Source of the DNA: a virus
Lineage: Duplodnaviria > Heunggongvirae > Uroviricota > Caudoviricetes
DNA: 64,000 nt
IMG/VR virus record: IMGVR_UViG_3300032167_002916
Reading direction: 5' to 3' (one strand)
Both the position numbers and the translations under genes were made by a program. Shown here one piece after another: positions 5,945 to 60,854 of this stretch (its first letter is position 1; every line of letters starts with the position of its first letter). The notes beneath the pieces are model-generated. The model saw nothing but the letters and a program-made list of their open reading frames with translations. It did not search any database and was not told the origin of the DNA.

Positions 5945-7543
5945 TTACGTTACCCGCTTAAAGTATACTTGGCCTATCTCTGGATTTGGGATAGCTGATT
6001 CTGCGTCTATATCGCCAAACATATCTGCGCTTAGAATCTTCATCAATGAACAGATATAGTCAGCTAACGTTTGACTTCGATTTTTAATATAAACTTCATT
6101 GAAGAAGACTGTTTCCATGGAAACTTCCATACCCTCAGATTCACAGATTTTGCCCACACCAAGTCCGTCACCACCAGACTTAAAATCGAGCAACACTGTA
6201 ACCGTAGATGAGAAAGCGTCCTTTTCAGAACTATTTCCAAGCGCATCAGTCACGACAACTTTGAAGTTGTAAGATGACTCTTCGTTTGGAGTAAGACTGG
6301 TTAATGTGAAGGCTGTTCCGTTAGTTAACGTTCCGGAGTGTACTGTCCAATCTTCTGCTGTGGTGACTTTATAATAAACTTTTGCGGTGACTGAATTTCT
6401 TCCACCAACAGTGTCATAGGTCCATGTTGCAGTGGCGACCATTTTGCCACTGTCATTTTTTGACATAGACAGCTTCTTTGCTCTTGGGGCAGTGTACGCA
6501 GTAAACGCAATAATGTCGGACGTATACACTTTTGAAGTCCTGCCACGACTGTCTGTGCATGTTAACATGAATTGTTTATTACCAGACGAAGAAATAATGC
6601 TTCCGGTGTAGTCCAAAGAGCTGCCTGTCAAGGACGCACGATAGCTGCCGGTGATAGAGAAACTACTAACAGTTGAACCATACGCACCAGATGCATCAGC
6701 AGCAATGTTTATCCTGGAATAGCCAGCCAACGCAATTCCCCACGATTTAACAGTGTCGTTTGAGCTGTTATCGATAGAGACCGTACAGCTATCAATAGTT
6801 GGAACAACGTCATCTGCTAAAGTGACTGTAAACGAAGACGTTGATGTTGATCCGATTTGCGTAGTGCACGAACTGCTGTTGTACGTATATAGAGAAACCG
6901 ACATTGAGCCAGACACCGTGTTTGGGATCTGCTCCGCAAATGATAATGGTATTGTATATCCAGTATAGGCATATGAACTTGTGGTTCCGGGCTTAATTGC
7001 GGAAGTTGTATAGCTCTTAGATCCAAGACTGAATTTTAACTTATAGTAAAAAGATGATGATAGGGGAGTCCATGTAATTTGACATGGATTTCCAAAGTAA
7101 ACATCTTTCACAGCTGAAATCGAAGACGCTCTTGGAATTGTTGGAAGTGAAATTGTTCCATCATATGTCAAACTTTCACCATCCCATGACAGTCCAGAAG
7201 GTGGGTAGGCAGATATTTTGACATTGCATGTTACAGATCCGTTGCTGTTGTGTGGCACCGTGAACGATGCAACACTGTTTCCCGTATCCGAACCATAACA
7301 ATAATAACTTGTGTACGGCAATGCATAGCCGCCTTTAGATCCAAGCGTTATTGTCTCGCCTGCGACAGTGATTGAAACATCCCATGTGCCACTATTTGTA
7401 CCAGACTTAAAACCGTCTTCCTTAATAGCGTATACCTGAATATCAACATAAGAGCAATTATTCGAAACGCTCTGCGTATAGTCATATGTAAAATATCCAG
7501 ACCATGCTGTCGATTTACTTGATTTTAGATTAACAGTTGCCAT
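5945..7543 (-). CDS. Tail fibre or receptor-binding protein (532 aa)
   Basis: Ser/Thr/Gly-rich beta-rich composition; directly downstream of the Tal-like gene. Confidence 0.55.
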   Translation of the reverse strand: MATVNLKSSKSTAWSGYFTYDYTQSVSNNCSYVDIQVYAIKEDGFKSGTNSGTWDVSITVAGETITLGSKGGYALPYTSYYCYGSDTGNSVASFTVPHNSNGSVTCNVKISAYPPSGLSWDGESLTYDGTISLPTIPRASSISAVKDVYFGNPCQITWTPLSSSFYYKLKFSLGSKSYTTSAIKPGTTSSYAYTGYTIPLSFAEQIPNTVSGSMSVSLYTYNSSSCTTQIGSTSTSSFTVTLADDVVPTIDSCTVSIDNSSNDTVKSWGIALAGYSRINIAADASGAYGSTVSSFSITGSYRASLTGSSLDYTGSIISSSGNKQFMLTCTDSRGRTSKVYTSDIIAFTAYTAPRAKKLSMSKNDSGKMVATATWTYDTVGGRNSVTAKVYYKVTTAEDWTVHSGTLTNGTAFTLTSLTPNEESSYNFKVVVTDALGNSSEKDAFSSTVTVLLDFKSGGDGLGVGKICESEGMEVSMETVFFNEVYIKNRSQTLADYICSLMKILSADMFGDIDAESAIPNPEIGQVYFKRVT

Positions 7544-7563
7544 TTATCTTCTCCTTTCCTTCA

Positions 7564-10500
7564 TTATTCTTGCCATGTCAGTGAAACGCCACCATCTTCG
7601 CGTGGGGAGAAGAAGAAGTTGCCTAGAATAAGGGTGTTCTCAATCACGGCATTGGGAATATGTAATTGATTGTTGTCCACATAAGAAACGATTATGTCTT
7701 CCTGTTTGAAATACAAGCCTGTATTATCAATAACAGTTTTGAATTTGCTGGAAGTAGCGCCGAGGGTTAATCCATCATCATTGAATGTCATATATTGACC
7801 GACCTCAGCTTTATGTGCAGCAAGCTGGTCATTGACATCGGATATTATTGCAGCATACTTTTTGTCAATTTCACTGGAAGCTGAGTTAATCTGATCTGTA
7901 ACCGAGGAGTTGATACCTGCGATTTTATCGTCAATCGTTGTGTTGATTTTTTCAGACTCAGACTGGATAGCATCATACAAATTGTTTGTGTTGTTTGTTA
8001 TAGACGCATTTAAGTCGTCAGTAGTTGTCTTGAACTGCTCTCTCAAAGCAGCGATATCATCAGCTACATCGTCAGTAAATACCGTCCATTCATAATCGTC
8101 AAAGACTTCCGAATCTTCTGTGTTAGTGTCGATATACGTACCAATGTATAGACCAATTTCAGCTCCGGTCTCGACGTTTGCATCTCTCATGTCTGGAATT
8201 ACTTCTTCGTTTTCAAAATAGGAAACGAAAGAATCGTATGTGTCCGTTCCGCCAGTTCCCTGAAGCATCACTCTAAAGTAATAGATACCATCCGGCACTT
8301 CGATTGTCAGATTGGAGGACAATTCAGAACTTCTGACATAGTTACCATCAACGTCATATTGTTTTATGTAAACCTTGATGCTATCATTGTTGGAAGTAGC
8401 CACATATTGAGTGCCAGGTACAACTGGGATAGCATCCACATAAGTAATGTAGTGCGTGTATCCGTCAACAACAACGCCTGTGTCAATCGTATCTCTTGAA
8501 GGGGCAACACCGCTAACCCATTTATCGATATTCGTCGATAATGCGTTTCCAGTAAATGTCAGGCAATCGTCAGAGTACTTGATGTGCAGATACTGCGGTC
8601 CGACACCGCCGCCAGACGCCAGATCTTCTAGGTTCGTAGAATCACCGGAACTGGTATAAATACTGATAGTACCGTTAAGTACGAGGTTGCCGTTGTCGTC
8701 AATATACAACTGCTTGGAGTAATACTCATTACCAGAATCATCTAACAGCTTCTTCTGAATTGTGAATACCATCCGGCTCGGGTCGTTGGACGTGTAATCG
8801 GAAGTCAGCGTAAAACCATTATTGTCCAGCGTAATACTGTTGTTCGTGTTATAGATACCAACTTCTTCAGACAAGACCATACTGCCAATAAGGGTATCGG
8901 CAATCACACCATAGCGCTCTTCGACCTCACCTGTGAATGGGTTGTTAAACAGGAAGCTGCCAATGGCAGTGCTTGCGGTCTCCCAGCCATCGTCAGTGAA
9001 AACAATGGTCTGGTTGGTGATCTTGATTTGCTTCGGGCCGTACTCTCCGTTTTCCAGTAAAGTGCGTCCCAGAATGCCAGTATCGTCGATGATGATCTCC
9101 TGATTTGCGGAAGCAAGTGCAGCATTTTTGGTCAGAATACCAGAAGACTCAATTGCTTCCTTCATCATGTCAAATTCGCCATCCTTGACAGGGTAGAGAA
9201 TCTCCTTGATGTAGTTGATGGAGTTCGTGGATTTCTTGATATCGCCAAGTACGCCATTAAAAATGGCCTTCGGGTCGAATCGGCTAAAGCGATTTCCGAA
9301 GGTCATCTGCAAAGACTTGTCCGCATAGTTAACGGTTATATTCGATAAGAAGAGCAAGGCCACATCGTCGACTTCAAGCTCCACGTTGATTAAACAGCCA
9401 GTCTCAAGCTGTTCGCTCCATTCTTCGAACTCCTTCGCAAACAGGAAGTTCTCAACATCCATTGAGAACTCTTGCGTAGGTTCGGAGACACGACTCAGTC
9501 TTGTAACAGCCCGGTCATATAGAGTCTTCATCTGCTGGAACTTTTCTGAGTAGGTCATTATACTGGTAACAGAAATGTACTCGTCAGTATAACTTCCCTC
9601 ATAAATGTAATTGCTTAATTCATTGTACTCAGCTTCTGTGAAGTAGGAGGTAATAGCAACACTTTCATGAATTGCCACAATTGAATCAAGTAGTCCAGAG
9701 ACTTCTGCAGCAGCATCGTCGAGGTCTGCTTTCGCCTGTGCCAGGTCATTCTTAGCATTTGCGATCAAAGTATCAATCTCTGCAAGAGTGTCTGCCAGTT
9801 CGTTCTGAACGCCAACAGGAACACCACCATTTTCTTCGATCACTTTGTTATAACTTGGCACAGTAGCTGTCGAACCATTGGCGACAATGTTATCCCGGCA
9901 ACGCTGGTACATTTCAATCTGAATGTTTATTCTGTCAATTTCAGAATTCAAATCAGACTGTGAGGTCAGATTCTCGTAATAAGCAAGATTGAGGTCATAA
10001 TACTCAGATTCTTTGGAAGCAACCAGCTCCTGCCATGCGACCACTTTCTCACGAAGGGAGTCTGTCATCCAGTCCAGATAGTAGTCAAAGTTGTAGATCA
10101 CATTTGTGCCGATTGGGTTGACAGGGGAGATGTTCAGATTTTCATCGCCCTGAACGTTAAGCGCAGTATACAAATCCTCAGACCCCTCGGAGATCGTGAG
10201 TGTGTTAATCACGTCAGCCTTGGTGATATGGATTTGTGTCTCTGCAAAATAGTTGTTCTGATCGTAGACATCGATCCTACGATTGATCGTGTCAAAGTGG
10301 AAGATACACTCATAAGCATCCTGCATGTTCTCTTGTAGAAATGCCAGGGCGTTCAGTTCGGTGCTTACGCCTTCAAAGGTTCTATACTTCTTTGCGACAT
10401 CGCCATTGACCTCACCAATAGTCCACATCGGCAAAACTGCGACAATCTTTTCTAGCAGATCTGTAAACAGGTACGTTCCGTCTTCAATGTAAGGAACAAG

Positions 10501-17289: not shown

Positions 17290-17683
17290 TCTATCTAATA
17301 ACTCTGACAACCACACAGACTGCGTTGATTGACATTTTCTCTGATTGGGATTATAATACTCATTGACCTGACGACCCAGACCGTCGTCGAGGCAAGACTT
17401 CAAAAAGGAGGCCAGTTATGTTAGGTAAACTTTTGAACTTGCCTGTCTCTGAGGTAACACCAATGCGAGGGCAAGGCGAATAATTTCGTGCCTGCGGAAC
17501 CCACCCGCTAAAGTGCGGTTGCCTTGAGTAAGAAAGGATAGACGCATCCCATCCGATGATAGTGCGGTAGCAAAGTGCGCACGTCCTGCTAAGGAATAAA
17601 AGGAGAAAGGGTCGACAGGGTAGCAACTGAAGACCGCCAAACACTATCGTTGCTGCAAGGTTCAGAGAAAACAAATATGGGCG

Positions 17684-17724
17684 AAGAACTGCTGAGAAGA
17701 TGCGCTCGGCAGTTCTTTTGTTTA
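17684..17724 (+). terminator. Intrinsic terminator (GAAGAACTGCTGAG / CTCGGCAGTTCTT stem plus T-run)
   Basis: 13-bp stem followed by TTTTGTTT. Confidence 0.55.
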
Positions 17725-36103: not shown

Positions 36104-36183
36104 ATGGTAGCGAGATGTGGGAGTCGAACCCACTCCTCAGGGCTTATGAGGCCCGCGACTTAACCGCTTGTCCTATCCGCCAT
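36104..36183 (-). tRNA. tRNA-Met/Ile2-like (CAT anticodon) with imperfect acceptor pairing
   Basis: T-arm GTGGG-TTCGACT-CCCAC and anticodon loop CTCATAA are clear; the acceptor and D stems pair poorly by hand-folding. Confidence 0.5.
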
Positions 36184-43209: not shown

Positions 43210-44034
43210 TTATCCGGCAGAAATATCCATCTCAATGACATTACCATCAATCAAATAATTGCAAGTAGTACTACCCAGATTAAGACTCCGATAAGCTTCT
43301 TCAATCTCTTCGCCGGTAATACCAATATAATCCAAAGTCTGAGCTGCACTGGAATGACCCATCATCTTTTGCAGCAGAAGAAGCTTTCGTGGGTCGTTAT
43401 GGCTCATAAGCATCTGATGGTAAGCGAAGGTCTTTCTCAGAGTATGAGTAGACATATGAATGTTCATATCCATGTCGGCAGCAATACCCTTCAGGATCAT
43501 ATCAATTGCTTTACGAGAAATAGGAGTGTTATTTGCCTTGCTATTGTTGGATGCACTTCTAAACATGTAGTCGCTCAGAGATACATTAGGAGTATTCTCC
43601 AAATAGAGAATAACAGCATCTTGGACCGCAGTATTGATTGTGATGTAGCGATTACGCTTATGCTTACGGGTGTTACGAGTCTTCTGCTCGAAAATAGGGA
43701 AGCTGTCTCTGAACATCTGGACACCGTTATTGCTAACAATCAGATTGGAGAACCGGAGCATCCGGAGATCGCTAACTCTGAGTCCAAAGTTAATGCCTAC
43801 GATAAAGAGCATGTTGTCTCTGAACCTCTTATTCGCAATAAGGTATTTAGAAACTCTAATGATATCGTCCATGCTCTTAATTGGTTCAGAGGTATGTTCC
43901 GGTGCAAGAACGCTTGACGTATCCTCAGTAGCAGGAGCAATCAAGCCGGCCTGCAGCCTACGTGTATTCTGTTGGATGGATGCTACGTTGATAGCGTTAT
44001 TTCTCTTCTCAAGATCAAGAACGATAATACTCAT
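43210..44034 (-). CDS. Second, small tyrosine recombinase (XerD-like, about 274 aa)
   Basis: GLRVSDLRML, HTLRKTFAYH and MMGHSS...LDYIG motifs. Confidence 0.7.
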   Translation of the reverse strand: MSIIVLDLEKRNNAINVASIQQNTRRLQAGLIAPATEDTSSVLAPEHTSEPIKSMDDIIRVSKYLIANKRFRDNMLFIVGINFGLRVSDLRMLRFSNLIVSNNGVQMFRDSFPIFEQKTRNTRKHKRNRYITINTAVQDAVILYLENTPNVSLSDYMFRSASNNSKANNTPISRKAIDMILKGIAADMDMNIHMSTHTLRKTFAYHQMLMSHNDPRKLLLLQKMMGHSSAAQTLDYIGITGEEIEEAYRSLNLGSTTCNYLIDGNVIEMDISAG

Positions 44035-44472
44035 ATACAAACTTCCTTTCGTGCAAACTATTTAATTAGCATTACATGAGCTTAAAATACAGGATCTTTC
44101 GATCCGGCTGTAAATTATTTAATTAACTTATATTCTCTTATATTATATCATACGAAAGGGCTTATGTCAAGCGATTTTGACCCGTTTTGAAAAATAAATT
44201 TATAAATATTTTTGAAAGAAATTGTTAGGCATTATTAAGCTAATTTCGGAAATACCAGGATATTCAATAGTTCAAAGTTTTGGAAAAGGATCTGCTTAGT
44301 GGTGACGATTTGAGGGGCAAAAAGTTAGGAAAATGGTGACAGTTAGATGAACCGACTGATACCATTTACGATTCACATAGGGGGTCAAAAAACCATAACT
44401 ATCCCCCTGTTGTACTTCCTCTTGTGTGAAATTGTGAAGTAGAAAAAAGTTGACCGAAATGAAAAAATCAGC

Positions 44473-44501
44473 TTGACAAATGGAATAGCCTATGATATAA
44501 T
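44473..44501 (+). promoter_or_regulatory. Consensus sigma70 promoter TTGACA-17-TATAAT
   Basis: Exact hexamers at 44473-44478 and 44496-44501. Confidence 0.6.
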
Positions 44502-44594
44502 CCCAGTACAGTCAAGCGACGGACAACAGATCCCACCTGGTCAACACAAACCAGACGGACACAAACCGAAGCAAGACTAAACCACAATAGCACA

Positions 44595-44646
44595 AACGGA
44601 CACTAAAAAATTAGTGCTTGACAAAATCAAAATTGTATGGTACAAT
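44595..44646 (+). promoter_or_regulatory. AAACGGACACTAAAAAA box plus TTGACA-17-TGgTACAAT promoter
   Basis: -35 at 44618-44623; extended -10 at 44638-44646. Confidence 0.6.
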
Positions 44647-44687
44647 GTTTACACGGTCAAGCAAGGCAAGTAGCCAAGCACGGACGG

Positions 44688-44853
44688 ACGGCACACGGCG
44701 GAGAGCGACAGTAGACCGGACGGACAAAAGCAAAAGCTAAAGCCAAACGGACCAAAAGCACATACCACACAAAAGCGAATAGCCAAGCAACCAAACCAAA
44801 GACAGATAGACCAAACACGGCACACGGCGGAGAGCGACAGTAGACCTTGCAAG
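44688..44853 (+). repeat. 30-bp direct repeat ACGGCACACGGCGGAGAGCGACAGTAGACC (two copies) embedded in T-depleted A/C-rich sequence
   Basis: Copies at 44688-44717 and 44824-44853. Confidence 0.7.
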
Positions 44854-44871
44854 GTCAAACATCTGGACTAG

Positions 44872-44925
44872 GAAACGGACACTAAAAAATTAGTGCTTGA
44901 CAAGTACAGAAAGTTGTGGTATAAT
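44872..44925 (+). promoter_or_regulatory. AAACGGACACTAAAAAA box plus TTGACA-17-TGgTATAAT promoter
   Basis: -35 at 44897-44902; extended -10 at 44917-44925. Confidence 0.6.
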
Positions 44926-45816
44926 CAAGGCACGGTGGAAACACCGGAACACCGGACGGAATACATACGCAAGCCGGACGGAATCAGAACTAAAAAGCAT
45001 AAACCCTAAAATCCCCATTCGTATGGTTGGATATAATAGGTATAGTAGGTACTGCCCTGTATACGTTGTTCTTGTATCCTTTGGATTAAGGGTTAAAATG
45101 CGGGATGGAAAACGGACACTAAAAAACGTTTGACGTCCATGTACCTTGAAAAGTGAAGAACCGCAGAACCTGAAATGAGCTATGGACTATGGGGAAAGTA
45201 TACCCAAAAGCTAGGAGGTCGAAAGACAACTAGGCTAGTGTATATATGCCACGCCTTGAAATGTTAGTAGCTGCCACTTGACAGGAAAAGTGTACCTTGT
45301 CAAGTTCAGAATGTGTATGGTACACCATGCACAGGCTATGGGAATGATACGAAAGTATTAAATGCTGTCGGTCGGCTGAAATGTACCCAAAAAGGGGAGT
45401 AGCCAGCGTGTGACACCACGCCGTGAAGCTATAACCAAAACGGTACAGAGTTGTCTAAGCCGTGAATAAGACAATGTTGTTAAGACTATTCAAGAGCCAG
45501 GTAGCGCCAGGATCACTATGGGACAAGTATACCCAAAAGGGCGAATGGCGGTGGGTAGATACCATGATACAATGGTGAAAACGTCCAAACGGACGGATGG
45601 AAAGTCCCACATAACTCCACCCCGGACTGTAACCAGGTGAGCGCATGAACGTATCATCAAGCGCATTACAGCTGACCTATACATATCATCATGACCTATC
45701 TGGCTCTTTTTCAAGCTCAGAAAACGGACGCTAAAAAACTCTAGCTTGAGCGCATAAATATGTGCGTTGAATCAAGAGTTTTAACCGCTAACTATAATTT
45801 TTTGGAGGGTATTGCT

Positions 45817-46782
45817 ATGAAGTACGAACGTGTAAAATTGAATGAGGAGATTGCAAAGATTCGCAATCAGTATGAACTGGCGGACACTATGCCCGCTCTG
45901 GATGTTTTCAACCATAACATCCACATGAAATTCCAGGCTTTTGTCCGGTTTTGTGATAAACCCCGGACTGAGGAAGAAAAGAAAGCCATGCTCGCCCCTG
46001 TCAACGTGGCAATCGCCATGTATAACGATGAAATGCGCAATCAGCGGCTTGAAACCCTGCTGGATATGAAGTTTAAGGATGCTTTTGCAGATTACCTGCG
46101 CACTCAGAAAGTCCCCGGCTGTAAGCTCGTCAACACCAAAGACACCGGATATTGCCTCACGGCGGACGAGAATGTATACCTTGACCCCTATGATGTGATT
46201 TCCGCACTCTGCGCCACTGAGCTGGACTATATTCTGGATATGGTTTGCATCTGGGCGGATAATGTTGCTCGGTTCGATGCCCGCAGCGATTCTGCACACA
46301 TGACCGTAGCGTCCATGCACTCCTCCTACGTTGATTTCAGAAAGCGGCTGGGCTGGGATGTTCCTGCTGAGGAGCTGAGCTTTAATAAGCTGTTGAAGCA
46401 GCTCAATGAGCTTGCTGCGAAAATTACCTGCGGAACTGCGCCGACGTTGAATGTTTCCGACCTGGTTTACATTCATGATGGTATCAAGATTTCTAAGGAT
46501 CAGGCGGACCAGAATGGCTCTGCCCAGGTTCGCAACGAAAAAACGATTATCAAGTATATTTTCCGGGCGATTTTTACCCGTGTGAATAACGGTGCATATA
46601 ACACCGGATTCGATACCCATGCAGGCAAGCAGGGTTCTGTGCCTCGTACATATAAGGCAAATAAGACCGCAGGCGAAAGCCCTAAACTGCCTGAGTTTTC
46701 TCCTGCACCTGTTGTGAAAGCCGGTCCTGTGACCGCTGGAAAAGCACCTGCAAAGAAGCCTGCAAAGAAAGCGGCAAAGTAA
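45817..46782 (+). CDS. Hypothetical protein with a Lys/Ala/Pro-rich basic tail (AGKAPAKKPAKKAAK), 321 aa
   Basis: GGAGGG SD precedes MKYERVKL; first gene after the promoter array; the H1/HU-tail-like C-terminus suggests nucleic-acid binding. Confidence 0.55.
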   Translation: MKYERVKLNEEIAKIRNQYELADTMPALDVFNHNIHMKFQAFVRFCDKPRTEEEKKAMLAPVNVAIAMYNDEMRNQRLETLLDMKFKDAFADYLRTQKVPGCKLVNTKDTGYCLTADENVYLDPYDVISALCATELDYILDMVCIWADNVARFDARSDSAHMTVASMHSSYVDFRKRLGWDVPAEELSFNKLLKQLNELAAKITCGTAPTLNVSDLVYIHDGIKISKDQADQNGSAQVRNEKTIIKYIFRAIFTRVNNGAYNTGFDTHAGKQGSVPRTYKANKTAGESPKLPEFSPAPVVKAGPVTAGKAPAKKPAKKAAK

Positions 46783-48732: not shown

Positions 48733-49638
48733 ATGTATAATCCTGAGATAAAAGAGCGGTTTTTGAATGAAAATGCTAATGCAAAATTTATCTTGTCTAT
48801 GTGCGCAAGGTACGAAGAATCGATAGGCAAGGATATTTCTCAGATGAATAAGCATGAGGCAAACTTGGTTTTGCAGTCGGCTGATTTGTGTGAGCTAAGT
48901 ACAATAGAAGGAATGTTGTCGGTTGGTAGCACTTATACAAAATGGTGTAAGGACAATAATTTGCTACCTGATATCAGTGATGGGTTTACGTCTATTGATG
49001 TCAAGGACATCGATCCTTCTGCGGTAATGGCAAAAATGTTTTTCCGTGATGAAGAAGACTTTATTCGCTCAATGCGCAAAGTTCGTGAATTTGATGAAGG
49101 CTATCCGGAGATAATTGGATTAGTTTTTGTATGGCTTGGATTGGGTTATAATGAAGCAACTACGTTAAAAGATACTTGTGTGGATCTTAAAGCGAGAGTT
49201 ATTTATGATAATGATGGTAATGTTTTGATCCATAGTTTCTCAGATGGAATCCATAGTATCTTTGAGCAATTTGTAAGATGTACGAACGGGAATCGTGGCG
49301 CATACAATGTTGTAAAAGATAGATCCTTGGATTTATTCTTGAAACGTATGTGTTCGCCGTCTTCGCCAAAAATGGGAACACCTATTTTGCCAAGGCAACT
49401 TACAAATGCAGTCAATAGGATGAACTTCCAGTACGAGGAGCTGGGGTATCCGCCTAGGTTCTCTATGTTGAACGTAAAAAGATCTGGTTCTTTATATCGG
49501 TTATGGTTAGCCGAACAAAATGGACTTGATGTAAGTGACAAAAATAATCGTGAGGAAGTGGAACGGGTTTATTGCGGTAAGAAATACCGCAATATTATCT
49601 GGCAATATAAGTATTACAAAAAGGCTTTCAATCTGTAA
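48733..49638 (+). CDS. Hypothetical (301 aa)
   Basis: Long clean ORF starting MYNPEIKERF. Confidence 0.5.
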   Translation: MYNPEIKERFLNENANAKFILSMCARYEESIGKDISQMNKHEANLVLQSADLCELSTIEGMLSVGSTYTKWCKDNNLLPDISDGFTSIDVKDIDPSAVMAKMFFRDEEDFIRSMRKVREFDEGYPEIIGLVFVWLGLGYNEATTLKDTCVDLKARVIYDNDGNVLIHSFSDGIHSIFEQFVRCTNGNRGAYNVVKDRSLDLFLKRMCSPSSPKMGTPILPRQLTNAVNRMNFQYEELGYPPRFSMLNVKRSGSLYRLWLAEQNGLDVSDKNNREEVERVYCGKKYRNIIWQYKYYKKAFNL

Positions 49639-49889
49639 ACATCGGATTGGTTTTCAATCTGGAAAACATAGTATTCCTCAAACTCGTCCCGGAAATCCTC
49701 CGGGACGTTTCTTTTTACTACAAGAGACCACTCGTCATCATCTTCAATCAGGTAAGCGGAGGTAATAGGGAAGTAGGTTTTGCGTTCAAGTTCAGCGAAA
49801 TTGGTGCTGCTAAATACTTCGATGTCTGCTTCAGCAGGTTTTGCGTTTGAAATTTCGACAGCTCCTAGTTGTGTGATATGTAAAATCAT
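49614..49889 (-). CDS. Hypothetical acidic protein (91 aa), convergent to the neighbouring gene
   Basis: GGAGGTG SD precedes ATG (MILHITQ). Confidence 0.5.
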   Translation of the reverse strand: MILHITQLGAVEISNAKPAEADIEVFSSTNFAELERKTYFPITSAYLIEDDDEWSLVVKRNVPEDFRDEFEEYYVFQIENQSDVYRLKAFL

Positions 49890-50125
49890 GTTGCACCTCC
49901 GACTTTTTCTAATATAAACGAACACCTGTTCGACAACAAAAACAATTATTGCACATTTCTCTTGGGATGTCTAGGGGAAATTTGTCGAAATTCATGTTGT
50001 GTCCAATAAAGGGGACATTATAAGGGACATTTCATGTCACATTAGCATGGCAATTCGCCGCCCGGTTACTTACCGAGCGGCTTTTTGTATATAAACAACT
50101 GAATAGTTTTGGGAGGAAATCAAAA

Positions 50126-54463: not shown

Positions 54464-55636
54464 ATGATTCATAGTTATCAAAAGCCGCTGGAAGGTAACA
54501 GAGTTGGTATCGTTTTCGGTTCCTTTGCCCCTCTTCATCAGGGACATCTTGACCTGATTATGAGAGCGAAGAAAGAAAATGATGGTGGCTGTATCGTTAT
54601 CTCCTGTGGATTGGACGGTGATAAGGGCGAGCCCTTGATGCCTCACAAAAAGCGATACAGATATGTTCGTGAGTTTTTTGCTGACGATGATCTTGTCGCA
54701 GTATATTCCATCAATGATTCTGAGTTAGGAATCGAGGCTTATCCCCAGGGTTGGTCTGGTTGGATGGAAGAATTCGAGAAAATCTGGGCAAAGGCGGTTA
54801 AAAATGCCGCTGTGTTATATTCCGATGATGGCGATAAGTGCATGGTCGGTCCAGATCGTGTGTGGTATGTCGGCGATGAGAACTACTACAATGACCTGAC
54901 GGAGCGGGGAGAGATGTGCGTGTTGGTAGACCGTACTGCTACGAACCCGATTTGTGCTACAATGATTCGCCAGAACCCTATCAAACATTGGGACAAGATT
55001 ACTACGCCTTTCCGCCGACTGTTTAGTCATAATATTCTGATCTGCGGCACTGCTTCCGAGGGCAAGACGGTTATGACTCGTGACCTCGGAAAGTATTTCA
55101 ATGCCCCCTATAGTTATGAGTACGCTCGTGAATATATGAAGGAAAGCTGTGTCGCCGACTGGGAACTGGACGGTGCGGATTACACAGCATTCCTGCAGGG
55201 TCAGTACAATCTGAACCGCAGTTTGATTAACTCTCCCGGAAACCACGGCCTGTTCTTCGCCGATTCTGATTCTATGGTTACTCGGATGTATGCTGAGTAT
55301 TATGCCAAGGATGAAACTTGCGCACTGACACAGGAGGAGTTCCAGGAAGTAGCAGTTCTGGCTGACAGTCTGACCCGCAAGTGCAGATGGGACAAGATTT
55401 TCCTGATTGCACCTCATGGTGTATATGTCGATGACCACGAACGATTCATGGCACACTCCGGCATGAAGGAACGGCGTGAACTGTTCGCAATCCTGTGTGA
55501 GAATCTGAAACATTCCGGTAACTGGGAAAAGGTTACCGTACTGACCGGAAACTACTATGAGAATTTCATGGCAGTCGTAGACTATGTAAAGGATGTGATT
55601 GCCAATGGCAAAACTGATTCTGGTATCGGGATGTAG
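54464..55636 (+). CDS. nadR: Bifunctional NMN adenylyltransferase / ribosylnicotinamide kinase (NadR-like, lacking the HTH domain)
   Basis: FGSFAPLHQGHLDLI (HxGH nucleotidyltransferase motif), ICATMIRQ (ISSTxIR-like) and the C-terminal Walker A motif ILICGTASEGKT. Confidence 0.8.
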   Translation: MIHSYQKPLEGNRVGIVFGSFAPLHQGHLDLIMRAKKENDGGCIVISCGLDGDKGEPLMPHKKRYRYVREFFADDDLVAVYSINDSELGIEAYPQGWSGWMEEFEKIWAKAVKNAAVLYSDDGDKCMVGPDRVWYVGDENYYNDLTERGEMCVLVDRTATNPICATMIRQNPIKHWDKITTPFRRLFSHNILICGTASEGKTVMTRDLGKYFNAPYSYEYAREYMKESCVADWELDGADYTAFLQGQYNLNRSLINSPGNHGLFFADSDSMVTRMYAEYYAKDETCALTQEEFQEVAVLADSLTRKCRWDKIFLIAPHGVYVDDHERFMAHSGMKERRELFAILCENLKHSGNWEKVTVLTGNYYENFMAVVDYVKDVIANGKTDSGIGM

Positions 55637-56108
55637 TGCTGTAGGGAAAACAAGGTTTGCCAGACAGTTTGCGATTCGTAATGAGTTCCTGTATCTGAGC
55701 CCGGACAACATCTATGCTCTGCTGAATGGAGACGAGAGAATCCACAAAAACAAGTTTGAAGTATGGATGACTTTGTTCAGAGCAATTCATATCGCAGAGC
55801 AGAGTGGTACTGACTGTGTGGTTGACACAAATGCCCTGTCGCACCTTGACAGAGATCAGTTTTTAGGATGGTTTCCGTCCTTTGAGCATCATCTGGTGTT
55901 TATCTCCGCATCTCCTGAGCAGAGAAAACTGAATAATTCCAGGAGAGAGCGCCAGATTCCGAACTCTGTAATGGACGCAATGACTCGGTCTGTTGAAGAA
56001 CCTAAGTGGGAATCCCTCGATAGACGGTGGAAGTCATTCGTAAGAATCAACAATGTAAACAACAATTTCATCATTGCCGAAAAAGAAGGAGACGTTTTCT
56101 ATGAGTAA
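55599..56108 (+). CDS. P-loop kinase resembling the T4 polynucleotide kinase N-terminal kinase domain (169 aa)
   Basis: ILVSGCSAVGKT Walker A motif and VVDTNAL Walker B motif. Overlaps the nadR stop, and its own stop overlaps the pnuC start (ATGAGTAA). Confidence 0.55.
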   Translation: MPMAKLILVSGCSAVGKTRFARQFAIRNEFLYLSPDNIYALLNGDERIHKNKFEVWMTLFRAIHIAEQSGTDCVVDTNALSHLDRDQFLGWFPSFEHHLVFISASPEQRKLNNSRRERQIPNSVMDAMTRSVEEPKWESLDRRWKSFVRINNVNNNFIIAEKEGDVFYE

Positions 56109-56808
56109 GGTAAAGAATTGGTTCCTCCAGAATTTCTGGACTGGTTACAGTATGGGGGAGAAGCTGTTCATGGCATTTGCCATTGCAACGCAGATCGTAG
56201 TTTTCTGCATCACTCCTGACACTCCGCTGAATATCATTGCCGGCATCGCCGGCTGTATCTCTGTCATCCTGACTGCCAAGGGACGATGGATGATGTATCC
56301 CATTGGTTTCATCCAGAACATCACCTATACGATTCTCGCATTCCAGAACTTCTTCTATGGTGAGGTAATTGAGCAGGTGTTCTACGTTGTCACCATGATT
56401 TGGGGTATGTTTGCATGGGCAAAGAACATGAACACCAACGAAGACGGTACCCAGGATGTCAAGACCCGTAAGTTTGGTATTGCTGAATGGATATGTTCTG
56501 TTATTGCAACGGTCATCGCAACATACCTGTTCGGACGAGTTCTGGTATATCTGGGTGCAGCACAGCCCTATACAGATGCAGCTACCAATGTTATGGCAGT
56601 CTTTGCTCAGATTATGATGGTCAAGCGTTATCGTGAGCAGTGGGTCTGGTGGCTTCTGATCGACCTGTTCTGCATCAAGATGTGGTGGGTCGCCGGTAAC
56701 TGGTCTATGGTTGCAATGTATGTGGTGTGGACTGCAAATTGCATCTACGGCTGGTGGAACTGGTCTAAGCTGAATAAGATTCAGAGTGAGGTTCCCGCAA
56801 ATGCATAA
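56101..56808 (+). CDS. pnuC: PnuC-family nicotinamide riboside transporter
   Basis: About 235 aa; 7-8 transmembrane segments; Trp-rich C-terminal half ending WWNWSKL is typical of PnuC; AAGAAGGAGA SD. Confidence 0.75.
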   Translation: MSKVKNWFLQNFWTGYSMGEKLFMAFAIATQIVVFCITPDTPLNIIAGIAGCISVILTAKGRWMMYPIGFIQNITYTILAFQNFFYGEVIEQVFYVVTMIWGMFAWAKNMNTNEDGTQDVKTRKFGIAEWICSVIATVIATYLFGRVLVYLGAAQPYTDAATNVMAVFAQIMMVKRYREQWVWWLLIDLFCIKMWWVAGNWSMVAMYVVWTANCIYGWWNWSKLNKIQSEVPANA

Positions 56809-60775: not shown

Positions 60776-60854
60776 GGGAGGATGGCGGAATGGTAGACGC
60801 TAAGGGACGCCGAGGATAACTTCCGTGTAGGTTCAAATCCTACTTCTCCCACCA
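60776..60854 (+). other. tRNA-like element with a Leu/Ser-type D-arm, canonical T-arm and A-CCA end but no foldable anticodon arm
   Basis: Acceptor GGGAGGA/TTCTCCC; D-arm TGGCGGAATGGTAGACGC; T-arm GTAGG-TTCAAAT-CCTAC. No placement of a 5-bp stem with a 7-nt loop pairs in the intervening 25 nt. Confidence 0.45.

Follow-up and report, generated by a model that had tools for sequence, protein, structure and literature searches.

The segment described here lies in a 64,000-nucleotide stretch of phage DNA (the window), between two divergent arms of genes. To its left, the leftward arm carries a recombinase, a YonV-like protein, a YonO-like RNA polymerase, and late genes; to its right, the rightward early arm carries early genes without an assigned function, an MrpR-like repressor, and NAD-salvage genes. 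The YonO-like RNA polymerase belongs to PF05183 and has relatives in SPbeta, Clostridium phage c-st, and Enterocloster phages; the YonV-like protein is of the YonV_C type. The host is known only as Clostridia/Oscillospiraceae-type MAGs. The initial annotation had placed the segment next to a replication and recombination module, a description that this set of neighbours does not fit: the ORFs scanned included no replication gene, and no initiator, helicase, primase, or polymerase adjoins the region. Its statement that the space between the recombinase gene and the first plus-strand gene holds no credible ORF was upheld for 44041-45816, where many indels interrupt the alignment with the closest relative. 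The features of the segment are as follows; boxes are copies of a 17-nt repeat, and L132 is a related phage.

44142 to 44170, minus strand: perfect TTGACA-17-TATAAT promoter (12/12, with TG), directed toward the divergent tyrosine-recombinase gene (43210-44040); kept in L132
44473 to 44501, plus strand: promoter P1, sigma-A-type consensus, with an A6 run 5 nt 5' of the -35 element and no preceding box
44502 to 44593, plus strand: leader 1, 9.5% T, with a conserved hairpin CCTGGT-N8-ACCAG at 44536-44554
44507 to 44517, plus strand: transcript start of P1, TACAGTCAAGC, conserved
44594 to 44610, plus strand: box 1, AAACGGACACTAAAAAA, with its A-run at about -48 to -43 of P2 (the UP-element position)
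44618 to 44646, plus strand: promoter P2, TTGACA-17-TACAAT (11/12, with TG, in a consensus scan); kept in L132
44647 to 44872, plus strand: leader 2, T-poor and CGGAC-rich, with two copies of the 17-mer ACGGCGGAGAGCGACAG at 44695-44711 and 44824-44840
44873 to 44889, plus strand: box 2, AAACGGACACTAAAAAA, 5' of P3
44897 to 44925, plus strand: promoter P3, TTGACA-17-TATAAT (12/12, with a TG extension, in a consensus scan)
44926 to 45000, plus strand: leader 3, 8% T, with two CCGGACGGAA copies
45001 to 45097, plus strand: long, imperfect hairpin with normal T content; the hairpin at the equivalent position of L132 is a different one
45110 to 45126, plus strand: box 3, followed by TTGACG without a usable -10 element
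45129 to 45713, plus strand: structured RNA region with GAAA-loop hairpins and three CTATGGG...CCCAAAAG units (fold z = -2.6)
45722 to 45738, plus strand: box 4, AAACGGACGCTAAAAAA, followed by TTGAGC
45735 to 45782, plus strand: hairpin before gene 1 that overlaps box 4 at its A-run, has UUUU at its end, and stands just 5' of a GGAGGG ribosome-binding site (45804-45809)
45817 to 46782, plus strand: gene 1 (321 aa), the first early gene, part of the same variable cassette as the array
48733 to 49638, plus strand: MrpR/SroF-type recombinase-fold repressor gene, a candidate trans factor for the boxes, 3 kb downstream

The initial annotation listed three consensus or near-consensus promoters in tandem on the plus strand, and a consensus scan recovered all of them at 12/12, 11/12, and 12/12; P1 reads TTGACA-17-TATAAT with a TG extension. 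The two weaker copies with only a -35 element are also present, as TTGACG at 45129 and TTGAGC at 45746. Each of P1-P3 has an A-run at the UP-element position. The perfect minus-strand promoter at 44170 to 44142 was absent from the earlier list. In the whole 64 kb, the sole further site that fits the strict promoter pattern lies at 17329 on the plus strand, just 5' of a FuFi-1 RNA. A homologue of P1 was found in all nine related phages compared, and L132 is identical to the window over the first ~30 nt of the P3 transcript; an IMG/VR search with this conserved P3 segment matched the L132 contig alone. At the P1 transcript start, the sequence (T/C)ACAGTCAA is found at a constant distance from the -10 element in the window, L132, L286, L288, L292, L293, L294/5, L200, and L285; the 5-nt discriminator, in contrast, is variable. 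When these phages are assembled from metagenomes, the assemblies are interrupted in the control region, where contigs stop at repeats.

The box, AAACGGAC(A/G)CTAAAAAA, is asymmetric, 17 nt long, and separable both from the promoters and from the ACGGAC motif. Its four copies, all on the plus strand, start at 44594, 44873, 45110, and 45722; the initial annotation had the number right, although three of its start coordinates were off by one. Chance would give 0.01 copies at two or fewer mismatches and 0.26 at three or fewer, and even with three mismatches allowed only the four clustered copies were found in 64 kb. Start-to-start spacing is 279, 237, and 612 nt. The boxes stand ahead of P2, P3, the structured domain, and the hairpin before gene 1, so that two are immediately 5' of consensus promoters and two are 5' of -35-like hexamers. 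An example of a 26-bp box-containing stretch is GGAAACGGACACTAAAAAATTAGTGC, and a relative with an 80%-identical gene 1 has AAACGGACGGTTAGAAAC at the position of box 4. Exact matches to the box in IMG/VR (51 in total) are attributed to chance, because each is a single copy inside an unrelated coding sequence. A role of the box as part of an RNA hairpin was also considered and rejected: boxes 1 and 2 can pair with a downstream TTAGTG, but such pairing is not consistent among boxes 3 and 4 and those of L132.

The depletion of T on the plus strand was confirmed. T amounts to 6.5% in 44655-44870, compared with a window-wide mean of 28.6% per 100 nt (sd 5.5%), and values of 8% or less per 100 nt occur in the entire 64 kb only at 44501-44610 and 44646-44880, with minima of 3-8%. 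The reported abundance of ACGGAC/CCGGAC motifs was confirmed as well: CGGAC occurs 15 times in 44041-45830 and its complement GTCCG not at all. A count against shuffles, a check proposed together with the initial annotation, puts the motif density above expectation. In 44502-45000 there are 11 CGGAC copies versus 0.77 expected from dinucleotide shuffles, none of 2,000 of which reached 11; A.GGA occurs 10 times versus 4.35 expected (p=0.0075, same shuffles) and GGA 19 times versus 10.4 expected (p=0.0005). CGGAC spacing is irregular (4 to 128 nt). The 30-nt direct repeat is exact, with copies at 44688-44717 and 44817-44846; the second copy had been placed at 44824-44853. Both ACGGCGGAGAGCGACAG copies sit inside this repeat. 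The 17-mer was also found in L132, L286, L287, and L288, and L285 has a less exact copy; the T-poor part is conserved in composition and holds a conserved 17-mer. Microsatellite-like tracts are present too (CAAAAG x3.8 and AACACCGG x2.1). The hairpin of leader 1 is invariant in comparison with L132 (fold z = -2.9), and the CGGAC copies of leader 3 are retained in the close variant L283 despite changed neighbouring bases. Minimum-free-energy folds place the GGA motifs in A/C-rich stretches or irregular stems, not in hairpin loops; for most of them the probability of being unpaired is 0.4-0.7. Searches of the region yielded no Rfam match at E values up to 10 and no blastn match among isolated phages and plasmids. 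The promoters, the boxes, the T depletion, and the CGGAC enrichment are real and far beyond chance.

Downstream, the structured region is closed by a helix (45492-45504 with 45696-45708) that runs into T5 at 45707-45711. The closing helix and T-run are also found, with different helix sequences, in L132, L286, and L287, whereas L288 has a local hairpin and T6 instead. There is no terminator before 45707. The helix and U-run near 45711 would form a terminator-like end of a long non-coding RNA, and this end recurs with covarying helix sequence. The hairpin before gene 1 shows a compensatory G-C to A-T change in L280/L281, and the same TTGAGC...TTGAA hairpin is found in L286, L287, L288, and L293. 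A possible likeness to the boxA of Firmicutes rRNA leaders is seen in the CCTTGAAAAGTG motif at 45143 and in comparable motifs of L078. Gene 1 itself has 69 homologues but no Pfam, PHROG, or PDB sequence match, and its confident structure model has no informative fold match.

The product of the gene at 48733-49638 contains the PF22822 domain (MrpR_N_CB; E=4.1e-11, 43.8 bits versus a cut-off of 27), which is carried by all 42 of its 42 homologues. The best PDB fold matches of its structure model (pLDDT 93.7) are MrpR (8a0a, E=2.6e-10), YopR (8bpz/8bj6), and the Phi3T SroF-DNA complex (9rd5, TM 0.67), which rank above Tn1549 Int, XerA, and Cre. Neither tblastn against isolated phages nor phmmer against the PDB returned a match; it is identified as MrpR-like only by the Pfam domain and the fold comparison, and sequence identity to MrpR and SroF is only 15-17%. 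Its core-binding (CB) domain is hypervariable, and the remainder of the protein is conserved.

The same layout was found across the nine phages of the comparison set (the window and eight further related loci, which represent seven distinct phages): each has 2-5 boxes, on the plus strand only, confined to the control region (checked over 10-15 kb of each relative), and homogeneous within the genome. Each phage has its own box sequence, uniform across copies: AAACGGACACTAAAAAA in the window, AAAGCGACACACGAAAAA in the L132 type, and elsewhere AAAGCAACAGCAGTAAAA, AAAGCAACAGGCGAAAAA, AAAGCGACAGCTAGAAAAAA, AAAGCAAGCGAACGAAAAAA, AAAGCAAATACCCCAAATT, and AAATGGAAATGATAAAATTT. L286, L288, and L292 share gene 1 at ~90% identity and the catalytic-fold domain of the repressor at 87-93%, but the CB domain at only ~50%, and each has a different box. 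When the window is compared with P0072, identity is ~30% in the CB domain and ~93% in the remainder of the protein, and box 4 differs only in its 3' half. However, a global comparison over 36 phage pairs did not single out the CB domain: box similarity correlates with CB-domain identity at a nonsignificant Spearman coefficient of 0.19-0.25 and with gene 1 identity at 0.57. The better correlation with gene 1 may reflect physical linkage. A variable cassette extends over 44948-46726: this stretch can hardly be aligned with L132, whereas identity in the flanks is 81-91%.

T poverty, too, is a conserved trait of the clade. T is 1-13% per 100 nt in this tract in all nine phages and 3-9% per 150 nt in most of ~50 recombinase-linked loci. 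CGGAC enrichment is significant in five phages with different boxes (the window, L132, L286, L287, and L288) and weak in four of the nine (L292-L295, with 1-4 copies). The tract corresponds, in most relatives, to the 5' UTR and the beginning of the coding sequence of a protein gene. Some relatives carry an HTH gene at this position; a search of the window by tblastn with three such proteins found nothing, and the idea that the array is a decayed copy of this gene was dropped. The tract is specific to the recombinase-linked clade, because the equivalent divergent region of the isolated, YonO-encoding Enterocloster phage PMBT24 is AT-rich and has no T-poor tract.

Taken together, these observations lead us to propose, with a probability of roughly 55%, that the segment is the rightward early-control (lysis-lysogeny) region of a temperate SPbeta-like Clostridia phage, in which the boxes are repressor operators and from which a long non-coding RNA is made. 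The boxes are probably operators of the candidate MrpR/SroF-type repressor, because they are phage-specific, evolve in concert, and are separable from promoters and ACGGAC motifs, and because a repressor gene of this type lies 3 kb downstream. The predicted transcripts of P1-P3 comprise ~1.2 kb of untranslated RNA, in which T-poor spacers are followed by the structured ~0.6-kb domain with its closing helix and U-run, and then by the first early gene. Repressor bound to the boxes in a lysogen would silence P2 and P3 and stop polymerases arriving from P1, which has no box. Upon infection or induction, all three promoters would yield much non-coding RNA, and the early genes would be transcribed by read-through or from a weak fourth promoter. 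The T-poor tracts would serve as leader and spacer of this transcription unit; the lack of T precludes -35 and -10 hexamers, U-tract terminators, and T-rich pause signals in them. Structure prediction leaves them mostly unpaired, and they could display the CGGAC repeats and the 17-mer ACGGCGGANAGCGACAG on the RNA or the non-template strand for some factor. On the other hand, the boxes lie at about -59 to -43, outside the core promoter, only two of the four accompany a usable promoter, and P1 lacks one. The operator model also leaves the T depletion, the CGGAC enrichment, and the conserved 17-mer unexplained.

If the operator reading is true, the recently solved repressor mechanism of SPbeta, in which a recombinase-fold monomer clamps an asymmetric box, extends from Bacillus phages to a large uncultured clade of Clostridia phages (100-175 kb, from gut and rumen), and the hypervariable CB domain with its matching box variants constitutes a natural specificity-swap set. 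The T-poor, motif-studded leader is a conserved feature that current models do not explain. It lies under the strongest promoters of the phage, is likely abundant, and may reveal a new use of early non-coding RNA by phages.

The initial annotation had argued from strand asymmetry that the RNA is the functional entity. It is reasonable to suppose that the T-poor leader acts as RNA or through the non-template strand, because the asymmetry and the motif enrichment recur in diverged relatives and the unit has its own strong promoters and a terminator-like end. A purely RNA-level reading is, however, not secure, because in L140 copies of CGGACAG also lie 5' of its only visible promoter. In one version of this idea, which we regard as unlikely, the T-poor part is an abundant, U-poor RNA of weak structure whose CGGAC motifs (of the A-N-GGA type) titrate an RNA-binding protein of host or phage, such as CsrA or another single-strand binder, in lytic growth. 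The excess of CGGAC (11 versus 0.8 expected, and 0 on the other strand), its significance in five phages with different boxes, and the retention of motif copies amid changing neighbour bases and indels all favour such a sponge, as do the mostly 0.4-0.7 unpaired probability predicted for the GGA cores and the combination of three consensus promoters with a terminator-like end. However, no Rfam family matched, CsrB/Rsm-type RNAs included; predicted hairpin loops do not contain the GGA motifs; L292-L295 show only weak CGGAC enrichment; the tract is a 5' UTR and coding start in most relatives; and the L140 copies precede a promoter. Nor were CsrA, Hfq, KH, or S1 proteins found among the window ORFs, and a search of 62 further ORFs for CsrA, Hfq, NusG-like, sigma, and antiterminator proteins was likewise negative. 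It is quite unlikely that the promoters mainly flood the cell with the ~1.2-kb RNA, so that its U-poor CGGAC/ACGGCGGANAGCGACAG 5' half would capture a host RNA-binding or transcription factor, its structured 3' half would be a new large phage RNA, and the MrpR/SroF-type repressor would be the switch. If true, this would be a phage-encoded protein-sponge or factor-loading RNA in Firmicutes, of a kind so far undescribed.

The T-poor arrays might instead be functionless in themselves, a by-product of repeated duplication of box, promoter, and leader, together with replication slippage, in a low-complexity A/C/G leader of an ancestral early gene. Array identity is as low as 66%, with numerous indels, in phages that share their flanks at 81-91%; the microsatellite-like CAAAAG (x3.8) and AACACCGG (x2.1) tracts, the 2 to 4 promoter modules among the nine phages, and the breaking of assemblies at array repeats are also in line with such a history. 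Neutral drift, however, should erase T poverty, and therefore the low T content kept across the clade (1-13% per 100 nt in the nine phages and 3-9% per 150 nt in most of the ~50 loci) counts against it. So do the 17-mer conserved in five to six phages and the strictly conserved transcript starts, and we consider this explanation rather improbable.

A replication origin, with iterons for an initiator or with RNA-DNA hybrids on the U-poor stretch priming DNA synthesis, is very improbable: the cumulative GC skew has its minimum and sign change at ~43-45 kb, an AT-rich stretch (27-30% GC) lies at 44040-44300, all repeats share one orientation, and U-poor RNA would form comparatively stable RNA-DNA hybrids, but gene orientation flips exactly at the skew change and alone produces such a change, gene 1 has no recognisable fold relative, and the equivalent tract in relatives is a protein-coding leader. 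Two defining features of the iteron-type origin offered in the initial annotation are missing, as the boxes are 237-612 nt apart and not a phased array, and no initiator gene is nearby.

Like the iteron origins of P1, F, R6K, and lambda ori, the segment has direct repeats of one orientation 5' of a gene, and these vary between relatives, in some cases together with a linked protein. Spacing is ~22 bp there and hundreds of nucleotides here, where the repeats stand at the promoters of a non-coding transcription unit and no initiator gene is recognisable. With CsrB and RsmZ the segment shares a non-coding RNA from a strong promoter and a GGA-motif count well above chance. Those RNAs present GGA in hairpin loops, whereas CGGAC here lies in an unpaired A/C-rich context, in a phage-encoded RNA of ~1.2 kb without an Rfam match; sponge RNAs are not known to be U-poor.

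The segment also resembles the A1-A2-A3 cluster of T7. Both systems have three strong host-polymerase promoters in tandem within ~450 bp, reading through an untranslated leader into the first early gene; across the nine phages, two to four such promoters are conserved. T7 leaders are T-poor too (13-17% T per 100 nt, 14% in the A1 leader), but the depletion here is far stronger (3-8%). The leader here also exceeds that of T7 threefold in length and contains a structured RNA domain, phage-specific boxes accompany the promoters, and the phage is of the temperate type and not related to T7.

The phage resembles SPbeta and phi3T in encoding the hallmark YonO-type RNA polymerase, YonV, and an MrpR-fold protein. 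In SPbeta and phi3T, a monomeric repressor of this kind clamps asymmetric promoter boxes of 15-26 bp (PMC10516654; bioRxiv 10.1101/2025.11.27.690993): a 15-bp element repeated at ~10 promoters is reported for SPbeta (PMC10516654), and in Phi3T an SroF monomer binds an asymmetric 26-bp box, whose central 6 bp are read by the CB domain (bioRxiv 10.1101/2025.11.27.690993). Our segment differs by its consensus promoters in tandem, its T-poor spacers, and its large structured RNA, which do not appear in the sections consulted of PMC10516654 and bioRxiv 10.1101/2025.11.27.690993. The boxes themselves, being asymmetric, at least 17 nt long, multi-copy, promoter-adjacent, and provided with an A-run, resemble the 15-bp SPBRE and the 26-bp Phi3T box (Phi3TRE) CAGTAATTTTATTTTTATTCTTAATG (PMC10516654; bioRxiv 10.1101/2025.11.27.690993). 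They differ in arrangement: the SPbeta boxes are scattered over the genome, whereas those described here all fall within a single 1.2-kb region of the 64 kb covered.

The control region between the leftward recombinase gene and gene 1, the first early gene (45817..46782, plus strand), is 1,776 nt long when counted to the gene 1 ATG at 45817, and an ORF check found no credible ORF in it, which bears out the initial annotation. The promoter scan of this segment identified three tandem sigma-A-type promoters (P1, P2, and P3) and one promoter of opposite orientation:

43210-44040, minus strand: tyrosine-recombinase gene, alignable with XerD at its catalytic motifs (R, H-x-x-R, H, and Y)
44170..44142, minus strand: fourth perfect promoter, directed at the recombinase gene
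44473, plus strand: P1, TTGACA-17-TATAAT, with TG extension
44618, plus strand: P2, TTGACA-17-TACAAT, with TG extension
44897, plus strand: P3, TTGACA-17-TATAAT, with TG extension

A minus-strand promoter-like site (TTGACC-17-TACAAT, 10/12; 44632-44660) overlaps P2, because an inverted repeat, GCTTGAC...GTCAAGC, spans the -10 region; many relatives have GTCAAGC again near the start of their leaders. To the left, the promoters adjoin a clade-wide element (~44330-44440) composed of AGATGAACCGACT, GGGGG-tcAAAAAACCATAAC-ta-CCCCC, and a hairpin whose loop is of the TGTGAAA type. This element is kept in nearly all recombinase-linked loci, irrespective of the cassette type downstream. Elsewhere in the 64 kb, the strict promoter pattern occurs at a single site, 17329 (plus strand). 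This promoter (17329-17357, TTGACA-17-TATAAT) lies just upstream of a FuFi-1 RNA (RF02986; 59.6 bits, exactly the gathering score) at 17474-17718 on the plus strand, antisense to tail/late genes; therefore, the phage sets consensus promoters before non-coding RNAs.

A 17-nt box, AAACGGAC(A/G)CTAAAAAA, is found at 44594, 44873, 45110, and 45722, always on the plus strand, against a chance expectation of ~0.01 copies, and the 64-kb window holds no additional copy with up to three mismatches allowed. The initial annotation had these four copies right, with three start coordinates off by 1 nt. When the whole window was scanned (mean T 28.6%, sd 5.5%), T contents of ≤8% per 100 nt were confined to 44501-44610 and 44646-44880; AT skew in the segment reaches 0.85. 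The suspected excess of motifs withstood dinucleotide-preserving shuffles of 44502-45000: CGGAC occurs 11 times versus 0.77 expected and A.GGA 10 times versus 4.35, and GTCCG, the reverse complement of CGGAC, has 0 copies in the segment. A 30-nt exact repeat is likewise present, but its copies lie at 44688-44717 and 44817-44846, the second 7 nt from where it had been placed. Promoters, box, T depletion, motifs, and repeat were thus all recovered and are real, conserved, and non-random.

On the left, the minus-strand arm carries the recombinase, a YonV_C protein, a YonO-like single-subunit RNA polymerase (888 aa, PF05183; relatives in Clostridium phage c-st, Enterocloster phages, and Bacillus SPbeta), an exonuclease, a tRNA cluster, and late genes (terminase, portal, tape measure, and tail). 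The plus-strand arm on the right carries small uncharacterised genes, the gene for an MrpR-like protein (48733..49638), an SPFH protein, and NAD-salvage genes for an NadR-like NMN adenylyltransferase/kinase (54464-55636) and a PnuC-like transporter (56074-56808). Because of these flanking gene sets, the segment is a divergent control region between an RNA-polymerase/late arm and an early arm. Two tRNA-like Rfam matches that reach the gathering score, 36109-36180 (minus strand; 38.9 bits) and 60776-60851 (plus strand; 41 bits), have no ARAGORN call and are additional to six tRNAs found by both tools. Related contigs have MAG labels that suggest Clostridia/Oscillospiraceae as hosts. We read the segment, with a probability of roughly 55%, as the region that controls lysis-lysogeny and early transcription in an SPbeta-like phage: an MrpR/SroF-type repressor would use the boxes as operators, and transcription from the tandem promoters would give a long non-coding RNA.

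Contigs with MrpR-like homologues yielded seven further loci that cover the whole control region and represent six distinct phages (L294 and L295 are near-identical); together with the window and L132, its nearest relative, they make a nine-locus comparison. The shared layout begins with the leftward recombinase gene (none was called separately in L286), the conserved upstream element, a box-less P1 with a conserved transcript start, (T/C)ACAGTCAA, and a T-poor leader. Then follow one to three box-promoter units, one more box, and a structured RNA, which in most phages closes with a helix or hairpin and T5-T7; the last box with a TTGAGC...TTGAA hairpin (in most phages); and the ribosome-binding site, the gene 1 homologue, and the MrpR-like gene. 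Minimum T per 100 nt is 1-13% in each locus. Each phage has 2-5 boxes on one strand, restricted to the control region, homogeneous within the phage and distinct from phage to phage.

Boxes by phage, with closing helices of the structured RNA in three relatives
Window: box AAACGGACACTAAAAAA
L132: box AAAGCGACACACGAAAAA; helix GAGCCAGAC / GTCTGGCTC
L286: box AAAGCAACAGCAGTAAAA; helix CGGGCTGAGTA / TACTCAGCCCG
L287: box AAATGGAAATGATAAAATTT; helix GGGGCTGAG / CTCAGCCCC
L288: box AAAGCAACAGGCGAAAAA
L292: box AAAGCGACAGCTAGAAAAAA
L293: box AAAGCAAGCGAACGAAAAAA
L294/5: box AAAGCAAATACCCCAAATT

Identity between the window and L132 is 81% in the left flank and 91% in the right flank, 66% with many indels in the T-poor part, and 44948-46726 is almost unalignable. 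L132 has four boxes at homologous positions, reading A(A/G)AAGCGACACAC(G/T)AAA; the boxes have changed in concert.

The candidate repressor for these boxes is the MrpR-like protein (301-310 aa), which has the MrpR N-terminal core-binding (CB) domain (PF22822, E=4e-11). According to PMC10516654, SPbeta MrpR (YopR, SroF) is a master repressor with a tyrosine-recombinase fold and no recombinase activity, and its target is a repeated element of 15 bp that is found at about ten promoters. A study of the phi3T homologue (bioRxiv 10.1101/2025.11.27.690993) describes a monomer that clamps DNA on an asymmetric 26-bp box, the catalytic-fold domain reading most of it and the CB domain the central 6 bp. 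A model of the window protein built from 32 homologues (pLDDT 93.7) has as its best PDB matches MrpR 8a0a (E=2.6e-10), YopR 8bpz and 8bj6, and Phi3T SroF-DNA 9rd5 (TM 0.67), with the true recombinases Tn1549 Int, XerA, and Cre ranking below. Because domain and predicted fold agree, membership in the MrpR/SroF family is supported.

The CB domain is hypervariable (25-52% identity between phages). In L286, L288, and L292, the catalytic-fold domain is 87-93% and gene 1 ~90% identical, and each phage has a separate box variant; at the third box, L286 and L288 have nearly identical flanks and differ only in the 4-6-nt box core. P0072, a homologue recovered from the two samples that gave L280/L281, is ~30% identical to the window protein in the CB domain and ~93% in the remainder; in its associated box 4, AAACGGAC is retained and the 3' half differs. 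These cases fit a match between CB domain and box core. Across all 36 pairs, however, the correlation of box similarity with CB identity is not significant (rho 0.19-0.25); box similarity does correlate with gene 1 identity (rho 0.57), which may reflect physical linkage inside a shared cassette. We rate covariation of CB domain and box as suggestive. Gene 1 has no recognisable relative by sequence or by fold. A small acidic ORF (~91 aa, ending ...YRLKAFL; ~49614-49890, minus strand) converges on the MrpR-like gene, the 3' end of which it overlaps. All related loci examined have a 91-92-aa ORF call at this place, and the window product can be aligned with those of L286 and L293; from position and charge, it could be a Sar-type antirepressor.

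Downstream of the leaders, 45129-45713 folds better than 100/100 shuffles (z = -2.6), with GAAA-loop hairpins, three CTATGGG...CCCAAAAG units, and a closing helix (45492-45504 / 45696-45708) running into TTTTT at 45707-45711. A long-range helix of different sequence followed by T5-T7, 10-20 nt before the last box, is also present in L132, L286, and L287; L288 has a local hairpin and T6 instead. This recurrence suggests that transcription from P1-P3 gives a separate non-coding RNA, roughly 0.8-1.2 kb long; expression of the early genes would then depend on read-through or on a weak promoter at box 4 plus TTGAGC. In L280/L281, a G-C pair of the hairpin at 45735-45782, ahead of the ribosome-binding site, is replaced by A-T, a compensatory change. 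Sequences of the structured RNA, which lies between the third box and the last, fall into at least two or three types (L132/L286/L288/L292; window 45129-45713), and the RNA is a candidate for a new large phage RNA. The type shared by L132, L286, and L288 is ~700 nt long and well conserved among them; for L132, no Rfam match reached the gathering threshold.

Despite sequence divergence, the window and L132 share T-poverty in the leaders, as well as all three promoters, 15-30 nt at the start of every transcript, the leader 1 hairpin, and the direct-repeat core. Significant, strand-specific enrichment of CGGAC is seen in the window, L132, L286, L287, and L288, which have different boxes; it is weak in L292-L295. 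The 17-mer ACGGCGGANAGCGACAG occurs twice in the window (44695 and 44824), twice in L132, three times in L286, once each in L287 and L288, and in a looser form in L285; in L283, a close variant, leader 3 keeps its CGGAC copies with adjacent bases altered. So composition and a few short motifs appear to be constrained, on one strand. Without T, neither -35/-10 hexamers nor U-tract terminators are possible on the sense strand. In Bacillus, NusG uses T-rich non-template pause signals, which T-less sequence lacks. A T-poor leader would thus be free of pauses, promoters, and terminators and might also present motifs to a hypothetical factor. As a caution for this leader reading, T-poor CGGACAG-bearing sequence in L140 and L151 also reaches upstream of the sole visible promoter.

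The T-poor, CGGAC-studded half may itself be a protein-binding or factor-loading RNA, a considerably less likely reading. In predicted folds, over half of the leader sequence is unpaired and the GGA cores are mostly accessible, and folding energies are just mildly below shuffles; the CsrA-sponge likeness drawn in the initial annotation extends to the motif count but not to the structural feature. Less likely again, the arrays are a neutral by-product of duplication and slippage. A replication origin is unlikely: cumulative GC skew changes sign at the segment, but gene orientation flips at the same place, the phased repeats and adjacent initiator of the proposed iteron origin are both missing, and the neighbours are the polymerase/late and early arms rather than a replication module.

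Among ~130 related loci collected via recombinase and polymerase, most have a T-poor tract (3-9% T per 150 nt) 500-600 nt upstream of the recombinase start (up to ~1,660 nt in a few), downstream of a strong promoter whose TTGACA is preceded, at 4-7 nt, by an A5-7 run. For most relatives, the tract corresponds to the 5' UTR and beginning of a gene whose ~330-aa product has a weak C-terminal HTH match of the LuxR/sigma-region-4 type; tandem repeats and RAGATH-16, RAGATH-4, and RAGATH-36 RNAs follow. The coding sequence of this gene is T-poor throughout and at all three codon positions (14-18% T versus mostly 20-29% in other credible ORFs of the same loci). This gene is absent from the window, whose cassette (promoter and T-poor non-coding units, structured RNA, and gene 1) is also found in L132 (= L055 = L199), L200, L133, L283, and loci with MrpR-like homologues. 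L137, L140, L151, L153, L201, and others carry this alternative cassette of T-poor ~330-aa gene, repeats, and RAGATH RNAs upstream of the recombinase; its tandem repeats are ~48 nt long and contain a CACCC-TTGCGGT-GGGTG hairpin, and L137 also has a tmRNA. Metagenome and virome contigs very often stop inside the region (L133, L134, L135, L200, L280-L283, and many others), at box-promoter modules or alternative-cassette repeats, so that public assemblies seldom contain a complete control region. A gene 1 homologue is also present in a more distant relative, L078 (reverse complement of 6400-8300), where three strong promoters again stand in tandem but the leaders are less T-poor (17-27% T). Its first promoter is preceded by four direct repeats of GTTAACAGAYG at a spacing of 19-25 nt. 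CA(C/T)TTGAAAAGT motifs, which we take to resemble the Firmicutes rRNA-leader boxA, lie 35-50 nt after its first two promoters and again farther into the third transcript.

An Rfam search placed the segment in no family. In architecture, it is like the T7 A1-A2-A3 promoter cluster, the leaders of which are also, mildly, T-poor (13-17% T per 100 nt). Closest in kind is the repressor-box system of SPbeta and phi3T, although the repressors share only 15-17% identity with the MrpR-like protein and the boxes, dispersed in those phages, are clustered here and joined by tandem promoters, T-poor leaders, and a structured RNA.
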